Notes under the pieces: model-generated
Told to the model about the DNA's origin: nothing
The model's database searches: none
What the model saw: the letters and a program-made list of their open reading frames with translations, nothing else
Origin: an uncultured Gemmatimonadales bacterium
Lineage (GTDB): Bacteria; Gemmatimonadota; Gemmatimonadetes; Gemmatimonadales; GWC2-71-9
DNA length: 64,000 nucleotides
NCBI GenBank assembly: GCA_963798915.1
Contig: CAWCVB010000002.1
Coordinates: 512,001 to 576,000 of the forward strand
Direction: 5' to 3'
In this document: in pieces, positions 20,141-33,500 of the stretch
Layout of the letters: each line of letters opens with the position of its first letter
Position numbering within the stretch: position 1 is the first letter of the stretch
Position numbers and translations under genes: made by a program

Positions 20141-20362
20141 CAACGGAACTCTGCCATGCATGACGCATGCTCCTTGGTATCGGTGGTCTACACCGTACCT
20201 GCGTCATGCGGGTCAGAAATGCGACATGCGGGCCCGTGGAAGGGGAGCGCGCGCCAAGGTTGCAGCATGGGATGGAATGACCGGGGCAACGGTTGATGCG
20301 CAGTTCACGCCGCCAAGTAAGTTCTCGGACAGGTTCTGGATTTCGTGCGGAGGGGTGCGGGC

Positions 20363-21148
20363 GTGTCTCGGCGATTCGAGCCTTTGGCGGATGACAGACA
20401 GTCAATTCGGCTGCCGGGATATGACTACACGCGGGCAGGTGCGTACTTCGTAACCGTCTGCGTGGCGGCGAGGAAGCGTATCCTGGGCTCCATACGATGT
20501 GGTGTCATGAGGGTGAGCGAGGCGGGGCGGGCGGCGGAAGCGGCATGGTATGGGCTGCCGGCGCATTATCCCCACGTGCGTTTGGACGCGTTCGTGGTGA
20601 TGCCCAATCATGTGCACGGGATCGTAATGTTGGACGCGGGAATGGATCGGGACGTGGGAACCGTAGGGGCGGGTCGGTTCGGGGCATCGGGCGACGGTCG
20701 TGGCGAGGGACAGGCAGGGGCGGGTCGGTTCGGGGCATCGGGCGACGGTCGTGGCGCGGGACAGGTAGGGGCGGGTCGGTTCGGGGCATCGGGCGACGGT
20801 CGTGGCGCGGGACAGGTAGGGGCGGGTCGGTTCGGGGCATCGGGCGACGGTCGTGGCGCGGGACAGGTAGGGGCGGGTCTTAGACCCGCCCCTGCGGGTG
20901 CCCGGGCAACCATCCCAACGTCGGGCGGTGCCCCGTCGCCGCCACGACGTCACGCATTACCCGAAATCGTCCGCGCGTTCAAATCATTTTCCGCCCGCGC
21001 CATCAACATCCATCGCGGAACACCCGGTGCCCTGGTGTGGCAACGGAATTACTATGAGCGCATTGTGCGAGACGTACGCCACCTGAAACAGGTGCGGCGC
21101 TACATTCTGGAGAACCCAGCCGCCTGGGGCGACGACCACTTCCGCTGA
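20363..21148 (+). CDS. REP-associated tyrosine transposase (RAYT, Y1 HUH)
   Basis: RQSIRLPGYDY, YFVTVC, VVMPNHVHGI, FKSFS, WQRNYY, YILENP. Confidence 0.92.
   Translation: MSRRFEPLADDRQSIRLPGYDYTRAGAYFVTVCVAARKRILGSIRCGVMRVSEAGRAAEAAWYGLPAHYPHVRLDAFVVMPNHVHGIVMLDAGMDRDVGTVGAGRFGASGDGRGEGQAGAGRFGASGDGRGAGQVGAGRFGASGDGRGAGQVGAGRFGASGDGRGAGQVGAGLRPAPAGARATIPTSGGAPSPPRRHALPEIVRAFKSFSARAINIHRGTPGALVWQRNYYERIVRDVRHLKQVRRYILENPAAWGDDHFR
20663..20895 (+). repeat. 4 x 51-bp in-frame tandem half-REP units plus one complete GTAG REP
   Basis: Units start at 20663, 20714, 20765 and 20816; REP GTAGGGGCGGGTCTTAGACCCGCCCCTGC at 20867-20895. Confidence 0.93.
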
Positions 21149-21268: not shown

Positions 21269-21317
<49 letters not shown>

Positions 21318-21786
21318 GAGGCTAGCAGGCCTCTTTTGCAACCGGACGACTCGTTCTAAATCAGTGCCATAATTACCTGCACCAGAACGCCTTACGGTAG
21401 CGATCCGAAGAAACTCACCGATGCATCTCATGCGGCGTTCGCCTCGTGGTGATTCCCATATGCTTCCCATCAGCGATTCGCTGACCCCCAGGCTCACGGA
21501 AGCGGTGGTCTTCGATGTACCAGTGTGTACCAAGGCAGCTTGACGACGACGGTCATGTATGTATGAGGGCCATCTTGATCGGTCGAGCTATTAGGCCAAC
21601 TTGGCCTTCGCGCGCGCCGGTCGGCAGGTTCAATTCCCTGTAGGCAATGCAATCTGCAACAGGTTGGTCATGTACCTGAGGCTAGGTCGTTGCGAGAACA
21701 CCCCTTACACGCCGGCACGGTCCTTCCTAGTGCTTCGTCGAAGGTGGAGCGACTTTTTGCCCCTGAGTGGAAGAGGGAGAAATGCG

Positions 21787-22131
21787 ATGAAGCCGCGCTC
21801 TCGACTAGCCCTTGCTTGCTTGGCCATGCTGATCGCAGGATGCGCGACCGGAGGCGGGTTCCAAAACCTGATGAACTCATGGGTCGGAAATGACGTAAAG
21901 AATACCATCATGGCCTGGGGCGCCACAAGCGACGTGTTCACGCTGCCGAACGGCAATCGAATGTACACATGGCTCTACGTGGGCGGGACGCGGGTGACTG
22001 CGAACTACAACAGCTATCTGAACATGGTCACGGCCGGATCGGTGACCTACTGGTGCAAGACGTCCTTCACTGCGAATGGCGATGATCGGATCATTGCTTG
22101 GCAGGGGCGAAGCAACGCCTGCCGTGCTTGA
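21787..22131 (+). CDS. hypothetical lipoprotein
   Basis: Lipobox IAGC; WG..S and CKTSF...W..C pattern. Confidence 0.7.
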   Translation: MKPRSRLALACLAMLIAGCATGGGFQNLMNSWVGNDVKNTIMAWGATSDVFTLPNGNRMYTWLYVGGTRVTANYNSYLNMVTAGSVTYWCKTSFTANGDDRIIAWQGRSNACRA

Positions 22132-22260
22132 GGAGCTAGCATTGCGAGCGCGAGTGCCCGAACCGCGATCAGGGGGCTCACGGACAGCTGCCTTCGGTTG
22201 TTTCAGCGCTCGGACGGCGCCTAGGAATGGGGAGGGGCAGCGTCCTCCGGGGAGGCGCGT

Positions 22261-22731
22261 GTGAAGTTATGGAGCGTCGCACTGCTCTCTGCCGCCCTGA
22301 ACTCGGGGCTTCCGATTGCGAGAGGTCCAGGTTCCATCTCGAACGAATTGGATCTCAACGAGATCACGCTCTTCGACGCGAACGGGGCACCAGTGGCCTA
22401 CATCGCACCGGACGAAGAGTTGGCGATCTATCTTTGGAATGGAAAGCGGGTGGCCTACCTGGAACATGATGGTGACGCCTTCTCCATCTATGGGTTCAAA
22501 GGCAAGCATCTCGGCTGGTTCGACGAGGGAGTTGTACGCGATAACGAAGGGGATGCAGTCGGATTGATAGAGGGCGCTGTCAACAAGACGACTGAGCTCG
22601 AGCGATTGAAGGCGTTCAAGCAATTTCAGCCTTTTCGTGCGTTCACGCAGTTCGCTCGAATCGGGCTCATTGATTCGAACCGGTGGTCACGGATGCCGCT
22701 AGAGCTCTTCCTAGCCGCCGGGCGCAACTGA
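22261..22731 (+). CDS. 4-fold beta-flower domain protein
   Basis: Repeated hairpins FDANGAPVAYI, YLWNGKRVAYL, YGFKGKHLGWF. Confidence 0.75.
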   Translation: MKLWSVALLSAALNSGLPIARGPGSISNELDLNEITLFDANGAPVAYIAPDEELAIYLWNGKRVAYLEHDGDAFSIYGFKGKHLGWFDEGVVRDNEGDAVGLIEGAVNKTTELERLKAFKQFQPFRAFTQFARIGLIDSNRWSRMPLELFLAAGRN

Positions 22732-23224
22732 ATGTCGATAAGTCGTTTTGCTTGTTGCCACTTGGATCTCGTTGGCGGCTCTGGCGGAACTGTGCCGGTT
22801 CCTGGTGACCTCGATCGACCGCTTCCGATCTGCTTCCGAAGCACCTCTCTGCTGCGATAGCGCCGAAGACCGAGAAAGGCGACACATACGAAGGCGCCAA
22901 GCGCTTGTTCACGCGAGTCTTCTCGCGTATGCCTGCGTGATCGGGTGCCGAGTGTCGGAGAGTCGTTGCTCTGCGTTGTTCTTCACCGGTGACGTGAAGT
23001 GGTATTCGCTGCGAACGTGCTGTCTGTCGCGCTCGAGTCGATCTAAGCGTTCAGATCTCCCAGTATGCGTCTTGCACATACAGTTCACGTACGCCGCCTC
23101 ACCGGTCTCTTTTTGCCTTGACTACGGTGTGATTCTGAGCGGTGGCTGGTGGTAGCATTTGACGCCCGGGGCGCCTTTGTGTTGTTGCGACTGCTTTGGC
23201 TGGCTTATTATCGAATCTCCTGTG

Positions 23225-26200
23225 CTAACTGGCGACGTTGCGTCCTTGTCGCGGGATACGAATCTGGAAGGGGGCAATAGAGGATTGCGACGCGCACCTT
23301 GCGCGCCGCGGAAGTGAGTTGCGCTGCTTGAGACTCGAATCGAACTCGGACCTAGTGTATAGGGCCATGCCGTCGACTATACGTGTGTCGATAATTGATG
23401 GGGTATCAAGCGGAGCAGGTGAAATAGACGATGAGGCACATTCCATGCGTATACCGAGTGGGTCGAGGAAGTGTGCGACAAGTGGGTGCTTCATGGCAGA
23501 GTCCAGCTCGCGATTCCATGACTCCTTCACCTCGACGATCGCGCGGATCCGAGATGCGGTGTCGTGCGCGCCTCGATCGGCAGTGGCCTGCATGTCAAGG
23601 TCGGTCCGATCCCCATCAACGGCTCTTGCCACTCTGGACTGCACAACCAGTTCCTCAATCATCACATTCCGTTGCGTGAGGTCTCGACGGAGATGACGGG
23701 CAACATGATTGGAGAGCGCTTCTTCGTCCTGAGGCCGTTGCCGTTGCCTGCCACACCACGCTCTCAGAGTAGGTCTATCTCTCGCAGCTCACTCTGGAGC
23801 TCGCGCTTTAGCCGCTGAAGACTCTCGGCAATCACCTCTAGCAGCTGTTGACTCGACTCTACTTGACGCGCTTTTGGTCGCTCAGCGAGTGTGAGGAGAA
23901 TTCTCGGTGACGTCTCACGTCAATGATCACTCACTAGTGTCGCTGAGGTTATCAGATAGTAATGCATGAGTTACTCGCGCTTTGGGCTGGTCACGGCTAT
24001 CTGTCGCAGGTACTCTACGCCGCCGGCGTTCGTCGCTCGACAAGCGCATTGAAGGCATTGCTTTGTCAGTGCTCAGCCTCATCTCGAGGGCTCGGTGAGT
24101 AGACACTTACGTGTCAGGGGTCGCTCTCAGGCGGGAAGTGCTCGATAAGAAGGCTCACTAACTCCGCAAGCGTTGTCTCGGGAAGGGGCGCTAGCTGAGT
24201 ATTAGCTCGCTCAAGGAAATGGTGCTTTCACGCTCGGCGACTCGGAGGAGGACGTCGTGCGCGAACGCTGGCTGATCTTGCAGGAGTGAGCTGATGCGTG
24301 GCTAGCTGAGATCCGCGGCTTGAGCAATCAGGACGGCAGTCGCTGCGACTGCAAGCTCGCGGGCGGGTTGTCTCTCGCCTATCCTGCAACAGGAGAAAGA
24401 CACTTTCGCGGCGAGTTCTGCGGCACGGTTGTCGCTCGCCTCGATGAAAGGCTTCACTAAGTTGACAAAGACATAGGGCGGACAGAACGGCGCTGCAGCA
24501 GCAAAGAGGATCTTGTCAACGATGTCGGATAGGCTCGAGGACTTCACAAGGAGTGATTCGCTCAGGTCTCGGAACGGATCGCTTGTCTCGTGGTTGATCG
24601 CCTGTGCAACAAGTTCTTCGACCAAAGCGGTGACATTTTGCGGCGCATGCATGCTCACCACTCGGACGAGTGTCTCGTGTCGCTCTTTCTCGTCTGAGTC
24701 TTTGTAGTCACGTCGCTTCACTATCACTTGGGCTCACGCTGCTCATAGTGCCGAGGAAACCAGATCTGTTTGTTTGGACGCAAACAGGAGCTGCGCCGCG
24801 CTATATCTCTATGCGGCGCTGAACGTCGTCGACTGATCGGGATACGGATCGGCTGGGGGAGCGCAGTCGTTCAAGAACGCCGCTGTCAGGGTGAAGGACT
24901 CGCTCTGGATTGTGGCACTACACTCCTCCCAGAGCGGGGTTGGGTTGGATCGTCATAATGTGACGAGCCGCTCGCTGCATCAGAAGGACTAAAGAGTTCT
25001 ACTCAGACTTGAGGTCACTTTTGCTCAGAGGTCATTGGAGTTGGGTCGGTAAGAGCGTTCTGTACTTGAGAAGCTGAAGGTGACGGCGGGCGGCTCGCTT
25101 CGCTGTGGTCTCTTGTCGTTGTTGTCTGCGTTTCTCTTCGGTCTGCTTAATCGCACGAGCTTGCAGCACGTGGTACACAAAGGCACGGCGTCGCTAAGGC
25201 GCTGGGTTACGTTCGCGAGTTCTTTGAGCAACTGTCGGACATCGGGGTCGGTCAGATGCGCTATCGCTACCTTTGTCTGCTCCAGATCACTCGGATCAAA
25301 GTGCCTCTGAAGCAGGCTGCGCTAAGCGTTGCGGCTTGGGTGCTCAGGCGGGAGACTCGACAGCTGTTTCAGCGCTTATGGCAGGTCACTCAACAGGAAT
25401 AGCGGCTGGTTATGGTATGCGATATAGAACGCTAGCTTGTCGCTTTCTCTTCGCCGGAGCTTATGAGGGTCTGGATCAGTGTTTGTCGTGCTTTTGGCTC
25501 ACTGGACAGGGCGTCGCGGAAACAGTGTGGCTCGTAGTCAGCTGTACCGGGGACGGAGTCGTAGTGTTTCGCGACTTGATTCAGAAAGGTGGTGATCTCT
25601 TGCACCGCGGTCGGATCGCTGTTTGAGCGCGTGACCTCTATAAGCGCTTGAGTGAGCAACAAGTTCGCTAGACGAGATTCGCTGGGTGTGTTACCGCCGC
25701 GACGGCGCCTCACTCACTGCAGGTCGGGGAGGAGATAGCTTTTCTTCAGCCTATCACTGTTCAGTGTCTCGGTAATGCGGTTCAGTGCGACGCTATATGC
25801 GCTCGACAGGTTCGGGCGCTTGGGTCGAGTCAGGTGCTCGAAGAGCATCGCAGGCGAAAGGGTCGGTTAACACGCGCTAAGCGCGGAGCTCTTGAGATCG
25901 TCGTCTTCGTTCTTCACTGGGGGTGAGACGAAGAGCGGGGTCAGAGCGCGACGGTCTGTCTCGGCGCTAGCGGCTCGAACGAGGTCGCTGCACTGGATCG
26001 CAGGGGGCGAGGGTTGGAGTCGGTTAGGGCGACTCGCACGGCTAGAGCAGCTAGTGCGGTCACTTTGTTTCACGTAGCGATCTCTAACGCTAGCTCTCGC
26101 GTTGGGTCGGAGGGTCTTCGTTCTCGATAACGGGGGTTAATTGTGCAGCGATTTTGGATGCTTGAGCTGTTCGTACGGGCGATGGGAATCGAAGCTGCGC

Positions 26201-27520
26201 ATCGGTAGTGTGTTGCGCTGCGAAGCCTCGAGGAGTGCAGTGGTCAGCGCGGCTCGGCGAGCGTCGCTCATGCGGACGACGTCGTTGAGCATGGCCTCGG
26301 GATCGCGCTCTACTCACAGTTGAAGAACTCGGAGTTGAGAGACGCCACTCAAGCCCGGTCTGTCGCAGCTGAGGGACGATTGGCTCAGCGGATCGCCGGG
26401 TCGCTGAAGAGGTCGGTCAATTGTTGAGCTTGAAGGATCGTGCATGTAGCTACGCGCGGCTAAATACTCCGCGAAGGTGGCGTGTGCGGCTGTTAAGCGC
26501 TTCGCACTCTGCTCGGTGAACAGTGCTGTGTTCAGCGCCTCGAAGGACCTGCGCTCGTTTAAGTCGAAAGTTCGGCACTGGATTGTTCAGTGCCGGCAAT
26601 TTCACTCAGGAGCAACGCAATCTGGCTCGACTGCGGGGCGTCGAGACATCGACAACGCGGCGATTGCTAAGCAAAAGGAGGGCGAAGATGCGCTTCGCTG
26701 CAGCTATGCGCTGGCTCGTGCTCAGCAGCAGCGGGCGACGCTCGGAGCCTGGGCGCGCACGCATCATGTCTGTCTGGCAGGACTCGGTGGTCAACAACTC
26801 AAAGAGCTCTGTCTGCGGAAGGGCAAGGGTCATTTCGTCGAGGAAACGTGTGTTAAAGAGCGAAGTGTGATCGGTTGGGCCGCGAATGCGCCGATGCCGG
26901 CGCAGTTCACTGCAGTCATGAACTGCTCAACTTTCTTCTGCACTGGACTCGCTGCCTGAAGCTTCAACCGCTTCGACGCCTCGCGTTCGACATACTGTGC
27001 GACATTCTGACGGCGAAGCGGAAGAATCTCTAGTTGCGTGACTCTGGGGAACGCGTTATTACCAGCCTGATGCCACGCGTCGCTAAACACGGTTGTCAAC
27101 TGGTCGGCAAGTGGGGTGGCAGTACGGCTGTCGGCACTTCAAGCGAAGCCGGAGCCGCTCGGTCGGAAGTTTTGAAATCTTCTCTATGAGCCTGGCCGCG
27201 ATAAGGTGCAGAGCTACTGGAGACTCATCTAATCTGTTCAGAACGAGGTAAAGGCGTTCAGTGTCGCTCTGCCAGCGCGCCAGCTCGGTTGGGTCGAAAA
27301 TCGCACGCGCAAACCTGTCCAAAGTGTCGAAGAGCGAAACGTTTCTTCAATTAAGTAGTGTGGCGATTGTGTGGCGCTCGAACGAGATGACTCTATCAGC
27401 GCTTGAAGGTGTCGGCGTACATGCCGAGCGCGATGAACTTTCTCAGGTCGGGGTTTTGAGGGCCAGAACACATGGATGCGCGTCAGGATCGTTCAGTGAG
27501 CCAAGAGTGTGAATCGCGTC
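23225..27520 (-). pseudogene. STAND/NACHT NTPase with C-terminal PD-(D/E)xK-like domain, hypermutated
   Basis: Degraded Walker A (P-D-L-R-K from P-G-L-G-K, ~27440), Walker B YLVLNRLDE (from LDGLDE, ~27235), HATFAEYLAAR (~26470), C-terminal RTD...EVKESWN; many stops; ends approximate. Confidence 0.8.
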
Positions 27521-28148
27521 ACTGGAGGGTGAGAGGGGGGATGGTTCTGTGAGGTAACTCTTGAACTCAGAGTATGTTCTGCTTGTTCCGTTCAATATCG
27601 AACTCACGGCAGCCGGCGATTGGCAGGATCACGCAAGCGGAGTATGCGATTGGGCATTGCAGTTCCGTTCGGGTTGTGAAGTCGGGACGTTCGTATCCTA
27701 TCCTCTATTCGTGTAAACGGCACTCTCAGCGCGACTTGGCTTGATCATGTCGCTTTCATACCCGACCGGCCGCCAACCTTGATCCGCGCTGGTCGCTCAG
27801 TTCCTTGAGCTGCCAGGCTCACCATCTTTGAGTGAACGCTCTCCACCAGAACCATTCGCGCTCGGCTGTGTGTTACTGCGGTTCAGCAGCGGGTCTCACT
27901 TGAGGCTCTTTGTGTAGTGTACGATGTAGTGAATTCTGGCTTTTGCGCTACTGAGATTCGAAGGCTGCTCGCCGAGGTCACTCTGCAGGAGCGTGGGGCG
28001 GTGTGGCAAAGTGTCATGCGCATCGAGGGTCCACGTCTCCAACAACAGCTCCATCGTGTCCAAGTCCCACCCACCCACCAGAGCAATAGCCAGGGCTATC
28101 TCAGGGGTCGTATCGTGGAAGAACGCCCAATCGTCGAGCTGTAGGCAC

Positions 28149-28252
28149 GTAAGCTTACCCCGATTGGATACAGCGTAAGTTAGACTTTCTCGTGACCCCA
28201 AGGAGGGTTGATGAGGAAGTCCAATTTCACCGAGTCCCAGATCGTGGCGCTT
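28149..28252 (+). mobile_element. IS3-family left-end remnant
   Basis: IR-like AGCTTACCCC..., AAGGAGG RBS, ATG at 28211 encoding MRKSNFTESQIVA (OrfA-like N-terminus), then truncated. Confidence 0.6.
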
Positions 28253-28521
28253 CGACGTCATGCGGCGAACCCCGCTCCGCTACGTCGGGACGGTTCACGA
28301 TGCCGCACTGACGGAGATCTCGCAAGGCGCACGATCCGACACGTAGGCCCTCTGGGGGCGGAGAAAATGAAGTAACGGGATTCGGAAAGTTCTTGCAATA
28401 TCAGGGGGTGTCAGCGCGCGTGTTTGGCGTTTTGTTCGGCTTTTAGGCGGCGGCTCTCCACGCTACGTAGTGCGCGTCTTGGTCCAGCTCCGTTTGGTTT
28501 ACCATGAATTTCACCAGTAAT

Positions 28522-30621
28522 CTATTCCGCTATCCAGAATGGCTGACTTCGGGAGACGGAAAGAATGCCGCGGCCCCCCAACTCCACAGTCAGCCGATAA
28601 TACCCGGGCTGGAGCTCGCTCAAGTGGAGCGACAACCGCACTGCCAAGCTCGTGCCGTCGGCGTGTGCAGTCACCTGTGTCGTGACGCTTCTTCCCTCCG
28701 CGCCATCCGCCGGCTCAATGCGCGTGCGCACCGTCATTGGAGCACCACTCGGCAGGTCCTCAGCCTCCAGCAACACTTCCATATCATCACCCACGCGGTA
28801 TGCGTTAGAGGCGCTGAGTGGAAATGCCCCAGCCGGTGTTGGCCAGCGCAGTTCGGTGTTTGGAGTTCCGAGCAGGAAGACGCAGACCGTCGGTCGCCCG
28901 CCGACGGGCGCCGGGACGTCGACGCCCAGCTGCAGCCCAGACGAACCAGCTGCTGGATCCGCACCAGTCAACAGCCATCTGATTTCGTACTCGCCGGTCG
29001 CGACGGGGAAATCTACGGCTCCCGCGACCCATTGGTTCGGGCGGACCGGACGCGTCGCATCGTAAAGCAGCGTGGTATCGAATGTGACCGGTGATCCTCC
29101 CCCTTTGGAAAGGGCTGTGATCCGGAGTCGGAGCGGTAGTGCCGGTCGGCCTCCTAATGAGATCAGCTCAAGACTCTGAGGCGGGATGCCAAACGCCACG
29201 AGCAGCCGCCCGGGCTGGGCCAGGCCGTACGCGCGCAGGACAGCATTAAGCGAGTGGTCGAAGTGAAGGGGGTACGCGTTCGTCGTCACGGCCAATGTGA
29301 TGTTATCCATGGATGCCGAAGCCACTTGACGTCGTAGTGCGGCCCGGCGCAACGGACGATATTCCTCCAGCCAGCGCGCGTATACCGAATCGTAGTCTGC
29401 CAGCATCGAGAGGTTGTCCCCGCCCAGACCCCCGGCACCAACTTGAAATCGGCGTAGGCACAAAAGGCGATAGGTGAACGCATGAGAGTGAAGTAAAGGC
29501 GAAAGTTCACTATCATGCCGCGATCGGGACCATTTTCGTACAGCCATGAAAACACAGGACAGCCCTGAACAGTCTCGGTGCCCGAACGAAGGACTCGGGT
29601 CGGGGGGCCATGGCGAATAAAGATGACGCCGCGGTCATCCACAAGACGCTGTCCACTGCGATACGGCATAGCTTTGTTGAAATCGCGGTCGTGCACTCGA
29701 AGCGCAAACTCGGCGCGGGCAAAGCGGATGCGTCGTTCATGTTCCGCGAGCCGCTCGCCAACCGAACGGAAGTCGGCCGCTGCACGCCGCTCCCAGAACG
29801 CATGTGCCCAACTAGCTCGCTCCGTCACGCTCAGGGAGTCGAAGGCCTCCATCTCCGCGTCCGTGGCGACCCACGCAAAATCCTGATGAAACACGCTGCG
29901 CGCTGCCTCGCTCCGGACCTCGCCAAATGCCCGGAACCACGTCGCTTCACCCGTGGCCAGTTGACCGCCATGAGCTGGCCCCGGGCTAACGACAACAGCG
30001 CGAGAGCGGAATCGCCCCGAAGCTCAAGTACACGAGCGGCGGCAGCAATCGCACTATCTGGATTGCCCCAGTCCAGCTCGATCTGAGCGCGGGCGAGCAA
30101 TGCCTGCGCATTCGTGGATGTCAGAGATGCAGCGCTTCGAATCGCCGCCGCGTCATCGTTACTGCCGATATGGGCGAGAGTTCGAAGCCGACTGTCGGCA
30201 AGCAGGGTTGCGGCGAGAGCGTAATTTGGATCGCGTTTGAGCGCTTCGCGCAGCGCCACCGCTGCGCGTTGCGCGTAGGACATCCGATAAGCCCGCGATC
30301 GCGTGTGTGAGCAACCACACCCAGAATGGCGAGCTGATACCGCGCTCTGCCTGCCAGATACCACGCTTCTGCGAGGGCGTCACGCTTCAGCAGTGTGGGC
30401 ACCAGAAGGTCAAGGGCCTTGTTCAGGAGCTGAGGGTCACGCTGTGCAACGCCGCTATCAATACGAGCCCGCACTGATGCGAGATCGCCGACAAAGGCAG
30501 GCAGTTCATGGGAGGCGAGGGCGGGTGTGAGTTCGTTGCTGGATTGTCGGGCATGGACCGTCCCGGTCGTCGTCCCGATACCCACGATTGTGGCCAGCAA
30601 GCAACAAGTCGCGTGTCTCAT
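28522..30621 (-). pseudogene. GWxTD-like/TPR exported protein, multiply frameshifted
   Basis: FWERR...RLAEHERR...DDRGVIFIRHGPP; TPR segments spread over several frames. Confidence 0.7.
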
Positions 30622-30784
30622 GGCGAACCATTCCAAGCCGCAGTACCGATTCTTGAAAGCCTGACCGCATTCGGTGCGGAGACCCGTGCAGGCAGCCGGG
30701 GATGCTTGCGCTAGCCTCAACCGACTACCCTGCGCTAGTACACCTGTTAGTAGTATGCTAGCGCAGGGCTCCGGAATCCACTCG

Positions 30785-31213
30785 TCAGCACTCCACGATG
30801 GAAATTGATCCGCACTGGTACCACTCTCCAGTGCCGGGCGAGCATCCGTCGTTGTGGTCCGGGCTAAGTGTCGGGCCACAGCAGTTATTCCCTTGGTAGC
30901 ACGAGGTTCCGCTGTCGTGAATACCGCCACTTCCCTCGCTGCAAGAGGGCTTCGCCCAGCTCCCCTCCCCATCGCCTTCGTTTATCGCTAGGCAGCAGGC
31001 ACCTCGGGGATCGGTTGCAGGGTCCCACCCGCACTGCGCGATGGAGCAACTCCAAGCCGCGCAGCCACTCAGAGCTTTCTGAAAGACCGGGATGGGTGTC
31101 TCGGGGGCGGTCGCCTCGGGGCCGGCGAGCCCTTGCGCATCTGAGCACGCAGCGGCGAGGGAGACGGACAGCAGGACGAACAGTACGGAGCACCACTTCT
31201 GCCTCGAGCGCAT
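30785..31213 (-). CDS. cysteine-rich lipoprotein
   Basis: Lipobox AAAC; 12 further Cys; GGAGG RBS. Confidence 0.7.
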   Translation of the reverse strand: MRSRQKWCSVLFVLLSVSLAAACSDAQGLAGPEATAPETPIPVFQKALSGCAAWSCSIAQCGWDPATDPRGACCLAINEGDGEGSWAKPSCSEGSGGIHDSGTSCYQGNNCCGPTLSPDHNDGCSPGTGEWYQCGSISIVEC

Positions 31214-32594: not shown

Positions 32595-33275
32595 ATGGAC
32601 GCGCTCCGGGCATTCTGGCGATGGATGCTAGATAAGCGGATGGATCTGGGCATGCCGGCCGTGAACTTCAAGAAGACGGGTGAAAAGGAGCTGGAAGATC
32701 TGCGCCAGCGGGACCGGATTCGATGCCTCTCGCTGGACGAGCTGCGACGGATGGAGGCCGCAGCCGGGCCGCGGTGGCAGCCCTTCTTCACAGCGCTCTA
32801 CCAGACCGGCCTGCGAGTGGGCGAGATGCAGGGGCTCCTGTGGGGAGCGGTCACTTTGGATGGCCCGCACCCCAAGATCGAAGTCGAGGGAGAGCATCTC
32901 AAGACTGTGAGCTCCCGCAGGGATGTCGCACTCACTCAGCCGGCCGTGGCTATATTCCGCGCTCGCCGGGATGCGCTGCCCGAGCCCCCGGCCCCCGATG
33001 AGCCGGTCTGGGATGCTGGGCAGCGAAACTACGCGACGGTGCGTTCCGCCTGGGTTCGAATCCGGGCGCGCGCAAAGCTCGGGTCGGCCCGGGTGCACGA
33101 TCTGAGGCATACGTTCGGCGGCCAGATGGTGCGAGCGGGGGTCCCACTGCCGGTCATCAGGACGCTGATGGGGCATAGCAGCCCGAAGACGACCATGCGA
33201 TACTTAGAGTTCGCTGGCGAGAAGGATACCGCGATGGCTGCACGGTTGCTGGAGTCACACTTGGCCGCAGGGTGA
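32595..33275 (+). CDS. tyrosine recombinase/integrase, N-terminally truncated
   Basis: TGLRVGE, HDLRH, LMGH and TMRY catalytic set; upstream in-frame STLNRD suggests a lost 5' part. Confidence 0.88.
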   Translation: MDALRAFWRWMLDKRMDLGMPAVNFKKTGEKELEDLRQRDRIRCLSLDELRRMEAAAGPRWQPFFTALYQTGLRVGEMQGLLWGAVTLDGPHPKIEVEGEHLKTVSSRRDVALTQPAVAIFRARRDALPEPPAPDEPVWDAGQRNYATVRSAWVRIRARAKLGSARVHDLRHTFGGQMVRAGVPLPVIRTLMGHSSPKTTMRYLEFAGEKDTAMAARLLESHLAAG

Positions 33276-33371
33276 TTCCCACATGCTTCCCATTTCATGT
33301 CGGTCAACCCAGATACAGGAACAGGTTGTGCCAGCTAAGTTGTTGTTGGATAACATGAAAGAGTGCTATCC

Positions 33372-33443
<72 letters not shown>

Positions 33444-33500
33444 CTCGACAGGACGGGCGGGACGGGCAGGACGGGCGGGTTGGCAAGCGACGCCGCTCGA

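Follow-up and report, generated by a model that had tools for sequence, protein, structure and literature searches.

APOBEC3G causes G-to-A hypermutation and kataegis and takes the 3' C of CC. RIP of fungi produces dense C>T changes, for which duplicated DNA and a C5-methylase homologue are needed, and favours CpA on both strands. The bacterial deaminase toxins SsdA (BaDTF2), DddA and DddB give C:G>T:A changes in DNA; as described for these proteins, SsdA acts on single strands with a preference for YCY, other contexts being also used, DddA needs TC and acts without clustering, DddB has a broad range and is specific for double strands, and BaDTF3 uses HC (PMC7901873, PMC13346905).

The locus to be compared with these systems lies in a window of 64,000 nucleotides (the whole stretch of DNA analysed, G000:C2:512001-576000) from a genome of 3.31 Mb in 17 contigs, with a GC content of 0.66 and 84.8% completeness. 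It belongs to an island of 12.1 kb at tRNA-Cys that is bounded by a 49-bp direct repeat of 100% identity, is present as a single copy in the genome and contains two small + strand genes, a broken NACHT gene, a TPR/GWxTD-type gene, a HEAT gene and a short integrase (Table 1). DNA matches to the left part of the island were found in 0 of 400 family genomes, those to part of the right arm in 3 of 300 genomes, and none to island DNA among 72,556 plasmids. The sequence upstream of attL matches the tRNA upstream region in six of the eight relatives' loci inspected, and the native promoter does stand before the 5' tRNA fragment and points into the island on the + strand, in agreement with the orphaned tRNA promoter proposed in an earlier note on this DNA. 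Integration kept this promoter on the 5' fragment, the complete tRNA-Cys being located at the far end, behind element sequence; a similar tRNA pair, 14 kb apart, was observed in G012. The short IS-like fragment, which we take to be an IS3-type start, had no Pfam match, and an Atlas search with the ORF at 27896-28261 gave no match either. To the left of attL, an IS200-like transposase gene (20345-21148) contains a 51-bp G-rich repeat, which explains a CC-free run at 20662-20885.

Table 1. Features of the island and of the CC-depleted tract (positions in the window).
Feature	Position	Strand	Basis or remark
attL: 5' 49 bp of tRNA-Cys behind native tRNA promoter	21269..21317	+	100% repeat of 33369-33417
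Left shoulder	21489..23763	+	Partial CC loss, P(C given C) 0.187; changes mainly C>A/C>G, homologue comparisons
Small lipoprotein-like gene	21787..22131	+	Frame open; conserved Pro-Pro reads Ala-Thr
4-fold beta-flower gene (PF21784)	22261..22731	+	Frame open; 5 residue differences from P0111
Broken NACHT gene, ~1,400-1,500 aa	23230..27700	-	Start approximate; profile of homologues
Core scar	23765..27740	+	C>T confined to CC/CCC; P(C given C) 0.069, fitted rates, silent-site test
Short IS-like fragment	28149..28260	+	Near right scar edge; 84% DNA match in G006
TPR/GWxTD-type gene	28522..30972	-	One ORF in relatives; split here by 3 frameshifts
Tyrosine integrase, short (226 aa)	32595..33275	+	PF00589
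attR: complete tRNA-Cys	33372..33444	+	tRNA and repeat comparison

On the + strand, CC was counted 105 times and GG 358 times at 22900-27520, whereas 1000 base shuffles of this segment gave 295±13 CC with a minimum of 253. CC is thus nearly erased with GG being kept, as had been noticed, and the three stretches described as free of CC (25752-26225, 24970-25269 and 23837-24019) are exact, with 52, 25 and 9 GG, respectively. The genome-wide sliding-window check that had been proposed was run on the 3.31 Mb (13,167 windows of 1 kb), giving a mean CC observed/expected ratio of 0.865 (sd 0.085) and a minimum of 0.18 inside the scar, where the 15 lowest windows and the longest CC-free run of the genome (476 bp) were all located. 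The CCC ratio was 0.03 in the scar vs. 0.19 in the lowest window elsewhere, and 8 CCC vs. 114 GGG were counted at 22001-27750. Low GC was rejected as a cause, as other low-GC blocks of the genome show CC ratios of 0.73-1.19. No comparable CC-poor window was detected in about 1.0 Mb of other loci (lowest 0.55), nor did window scans and frame-switch clusters reveal the same GG/CC motif affected elsewhere in the genome. The scar is a real and extreme feature of the assembly. Regarding its extent, the depletion at 22900-27520 was reproduced but the limits were not, the affected span being about 21490-27745; in place of the smooth fading to both sides that had been claimed, change-point analysis of the probability that C follows C gave step-like edges, with the values shown in Table 1 for shoulder and core and 0.27 from 27746 on.

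Two further regions were examined and rejected as second scars. At C3:147000-150000, frames are open and the silent-site odds ratios, calculated with 8 relatives and without L035, were 0.64 and 0.89 vs. 0.81 for the normal remainder; one gene is poor in CC and its convergent neighbour poor in GG, with no switch of skew. The low-GC block of this region (L001:7250-9950, G000:C3:147250-149950) spans the 3' portion of a BTAD-AAA gene together with a convergent HD-GYP gene and is present at the orthologous place in nine of nine relatives' loci, with intact frames and a mild coding-strand CC loss; it is a different, mild GC shift. The tail of contig C17 (L002:5000-11813, G000:C17:63000-69812) is frameshifted, about 80% identical to Bryobacteraceae-family genes and matched in 178 of the 251 genomes of a Bryobacteraceae-centred search and in 0 of 9 of its own genus, and is probably a chimeric contig end, as judged from these similarities. 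It contains private indels, but among 695 near-invariant columns only three C>T changes and one G>A change were counted, and its CC is low by composition, without C>T excess. Seven other frame-switch clusters were also without comparable CC or GG loss. Because the C17 tail and these clusters lack the bias, thin coverage alone does not yield the scar pattern.

The gene affected by the scar was analysed with a profile of 49 homologous proteins, aligned to 27343-23259 at ~30% identity. Along this alignment 24 stops and 15 frameshifts were detected (12 of -1, 2 of +2 and 1 of +1), as expected for the destroyed island gene noticed before. Its homologues are NACHT proteins of 1,150-1,580 aa (PF05729 in homologue P0016). 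Besides the NACHT NTPase, the broken gene has a long helical sensor region and a C-terminal EVKGxW domain; the C-terminal part of one homologue resembles DUF8371. The broken motifs reported before (LNRLDE, PDLRK and EVKESW) are present in the - strand frames, and the suspected conversion of Trp codons into stops was recovered at 11 of the 17 conserved-Trp profile columns (8 TGA, 2 TAA, 1 TAG), the other six being three TGG and three other residues. All nine intact homologues tested match the models of Erebus/Hypnos (EruA/HyoA; NF058535, NF058534), several of them near full length, with E values of 1e-29 to 1e-84, although at 100-283 bits all nine are far below the NCBIfam cut-offs of 1000 and 1200. 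Erebus and Hypnos are described as NACHT antiphage proteins (Avs10; 10.64898/2026.01.04.697583). As the homologues match both antiphage models below cut-off, the broken gene is probably a defence sensor outside the EruA/HyoA equivalogs. No intact close copy of it was found, the best local identity among 102 proteins being 49%, and its C-terminal piece had no match in metagenomes.

Since there was no close intact copy, substitution rates were obtained by a maximum-likelihood fit over possible original codons against the ~30%-identity profile. Over 1181 codons, coding-strand G>A reached 0.985 at the middle of GGG, 0.35/0.26 in GG and 0.0 at lone G, and G>C, G>T and coding C>T were about 0. In the core (818 codons), + strand C>T was about 0.95 for a C in the middle of CCC and 0.2-0.6 for either C of CC: the 5' C was changed at 0.24-0.60 when its partner was kept and at 0.125 when the partner was changed, the 3' C at 0.20-0.49 and a lone C, also after T, at most at 0.02, other changes being about 0.001. 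Double changes in CC are rare because the first change removes the CC context. The context model was better than one without context by 90 log units. Silent sites, which are independent of the amino-acid model, showed a G:A ratio of 26:65 next to G vs. 150:61 alone (odds ratio 0.17), compared to 0.46-0.85 in genome bins and 1.04 in the island neighbour. A mass balance against the island arm over 2701 bp gave a C deficit of about 186 and a T excess of about 176, and TCT was not depleted. By segment, and on the basis of small numbers, the tract from 23.8 to 26.5 kb is almost pure C>T, and transversions appear at 26.5-27.4 kb. These data establish the strand, the context, the C>T outcome and its near-exclusivity within a CC pair; the spectrum check suggested at the outset was thus run on the core by profile alignment and found to be dominated by + strand C>T within CC, either C of the pair being changed and the lone C spared, as first noticed.

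The 15 frameshifts in 4.1 kb and the transversions of the shoulder are features beyond the earlier note. The beta-flower gene was compared with P0111, a 94%-identical protein from ENA encoded on a 12,122-bp contig; the differences (S>R, P>R, N>K, H>N and Q>E) each correspond to a + strand C>A or C>G, and three of the five affect positions that the family conserves. P0111 is itself unusual at two points, with L>W and a premature end, but has none of the shoulder changes, so this protein comparison shows, for the shoulder only, changes private to the copy in the island. The profile supports the shoulder weakly, with log-likelihood gains of 4.8 and 1.7, and no close beta-flower locus was found in metagenome, genome or viral contigs. 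The circle that the island would form measures 12,100 bp, 22 bp less than the P0111 contig; this difference is near the 16 net bases counted as lost, which may be chance. Frame changes are rare in core genes, with 1 in 84 proteins (33,840 aa), and the seven stops found in this check lie in overhangs or shadow frames. In the unscarred arm of the island, the TPR/GWxTD-type gene carries three frameshifts in 2.4 kb without stops, with normal CC and 12 of 12 Trp codons intact, and on visual inspection each of these frameshifts can be explained by the loss of a single base from a C-run of the + strand. This points to low coverage of the island in a long-read assembly, the platform being inferred, although a remnant element in natural decay would give the same picture. 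A genome-wide frame-switch scan flagged nothing in the island and is therefore blind in low-GC genes.

When compared to the described systems, the scar resembles the action of APOBEC3G in its single strand, kilobase tract, CC context, conversion of Trp codons to stops and very high density, and it is a strand-coordinated C>T cluster of that type. It differs in that the 3' C is not the preferred target, either C being changed about equally, and also in that CCC becomes mostly CTC, the host is bacterial, -1 frameshifts are many and no enzyme was found. The YCY, TC and HC contexts of SsdA, DddA, DddB and BaDTF3 do not describe it, as the lone C in TC or CT is changed at most at 0.02, and all change is found in one tract of one strand; a deaminase toxin would come from another cell anyway. 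Dense C>T in DNA not belonging to the host is shared with RIP, but the scar is on one strand of a sequence that is single copy in the genome, and a match to PF00145 is lacking. The two-sided CC rule, as deduced from the fitted rates, thus appears to fit none of the deaminases compared.

The genome (84.8% complete) was also searched for candidate enzymes. No DNA-deaminase family was detected, with only three PF00383 genes present, in line with the previous failure to recognize a deaminase gene. PF14428 and PF14431 had no matches in the genome, so that neither a DddA-like nor a YwqJ family gene was detected, the PF14428 (DddA-like) control having matched nowhere. The C5 methylase PF00145 gave 0 matches, its control having matched in 9 of 14. 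The check for ung that had been proposed was run, and a UDG gene is present. At L122:592-4156 (G000:C2), a DUF6610 gene, a membrane gene, an N6/N4 methylase and an unknown 246-aa gene stand together, a cluster which is a possible source of base modification.

The explanation that we tentatively prefer, as plausible and just short of probable, is a single deamination event on one strand, either fixed or present only on the sequenced molecule. This event would have altered cytosines in C-runs along the + strand over 4-6 kb of the 12.1-kb integrative element, the putative agent being a cytosine deaminase that requires a neighbouring C on either side, which would explain both the either-or changes and the conversion of CCC into CTC. 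The + strand may have been exposed during transfer, gap repair or in an excision intermediate. The lesion would be C>U; uracil read or copied as T would give the core, and its excision to abasic sites would give the -1 deletions and the transversions of the shoulder. As this added step is required, the frameshifts (15 per 4.1 kb) and the transversions count against fixation of U>T. Step edges, as read ends give, and the three substitution-free frameshifts of the island arm are also evidence against deamination. Fixation of the changes by replication is considered rather unlikely, and lesions on one or few native molecules that defined the consensus are unlikely. The pattern looks like that of a DNA-editing enzyme, and the scar may be limited to the small number of long-read molecules from which the assembly was built. 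From the earlier proposal of localized cytosine deamination, the strand, the CC context and the C>T change stand, and the changes may be inherited mutations.

The frameshifts, the shoulder transversions, the signs of a thin long-read assembly and a documented mode of one-strand G>A miscalls lead to a sequencing origin as the main alternative, namely nanopore miscalls of modified or damaged G, or of its neighbours, in - strand G-runs, with the DNA unmutated and the miscalls kept by thin coverage; this is somewhat unlikely. One-strand G>A errors from DNA modification are reported to dominate R10.4.1 assemblies (PMC11610603; 10.1101/2023.09.15.556300), G being called as A near modified bases on one strand in >80% of reads at such sites, where accuracy falls below 20% (PMC11610603), and 8-oxo-dG is reported as miscalled as a deletion (16.4%), C (13.5%) or A (12.5%), a mix resembling the changes of the shoulder (10.1101/2024.05.17.594638). 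Step edges, the frameshifted island arm, the chimeric and frameshifted C17 tail, which points to long reads, and the DUF6610 gene and N6/N4 methylase at C2:592-3341 would also fit. The likeness to the errors described in PMC11610603 includes their single strand, high frequency and capacity to enter assemblies; however, those lie at methylation motifs scattered genome-wide, and the scar is one 4-kb tract at bare GG. A host-wide modification would be expected to affect both strands or further thinly covered places as well, where none was found, and the core is pure, with other changes at about 0.001. Furthermore, the platform is only inferred, no C5 methylase was found in the genome (84.8% complete), and the motifs described for DpdA are GA/GGC (PMC7544227; PMC10484667), of which GA is untouched in the scar.

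It is quite unlikely that the C-runs were rewritten through a faulty segment of a read or by a neural polisher that had a depth of 1-2 to work with. Such an artefact of consensus or signal would account for the step edges, the deletion load and the privacy of the changes to this assembly, but the rough C17 tail and the other frame-switch clusters are without such bias, and polisher behaviour of that kind was not found described in the passages covered by the literature search. Inheritance by another route (deamination associated with transcription from the tRNA promoter, dCTP-starved synthesis, or UV or alkylation) is improbable: the + strand orientation of the native promoter towards the island is in its favour, but read-through from this promoter, which had been offered as the cause, predicts the strongest effect near 21.3 kb, whereas the effect is weakest there and strongest 4-5 kb away, in steps without decay; positions 21731 and 22956 look like terminators, of which 10 were detected where chance would give 6.1, and the spectra expected from UV, alkylation and pool imbalance do not agree with the sparing of lone C, TC and CT and the rarity of TT doubles. 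The earlier interpretation holds for the core spectrum, the promoter position and the failure to find a DNA-deaminase family in the genome (84.8% complete), but not for a promoter-driven cause.

No description of a one-strand tract of this kind on a natural bacterial chromosome was found among the top-listed papers of a mainly open-access library, as judged from titles and starts of abstracts. The suggested system that inactivates foreign or defence DNA is a candidate based on one site and no enzyme. More specifically, we consider it doubtful, though worth stating, that a mutator of soil bacteria with a two-sided CC rule saturates one strand of a mobile element with C>U when that strand is exposed on entry or excision, leaving inherited kataegis-like scars that destroy the genes of the element. 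If the scar is a consensus artefact, genomes assembled from long-read metagenomes can fail in a way that creates false pseudogenes. If it is confined to the sequenced molecule, it marks a place where the bases of native DNA are densely damaged or modified over a short distance. An inherited scar would mean that APOBEC-style hypermutation tracts occur naturally on a bacterial chromosome, here with a context rule that differs from those of the deaminases compared; it would point to a new enzyme, which might serve as an editing tool, and to a fate of mobile DNA that is also new.
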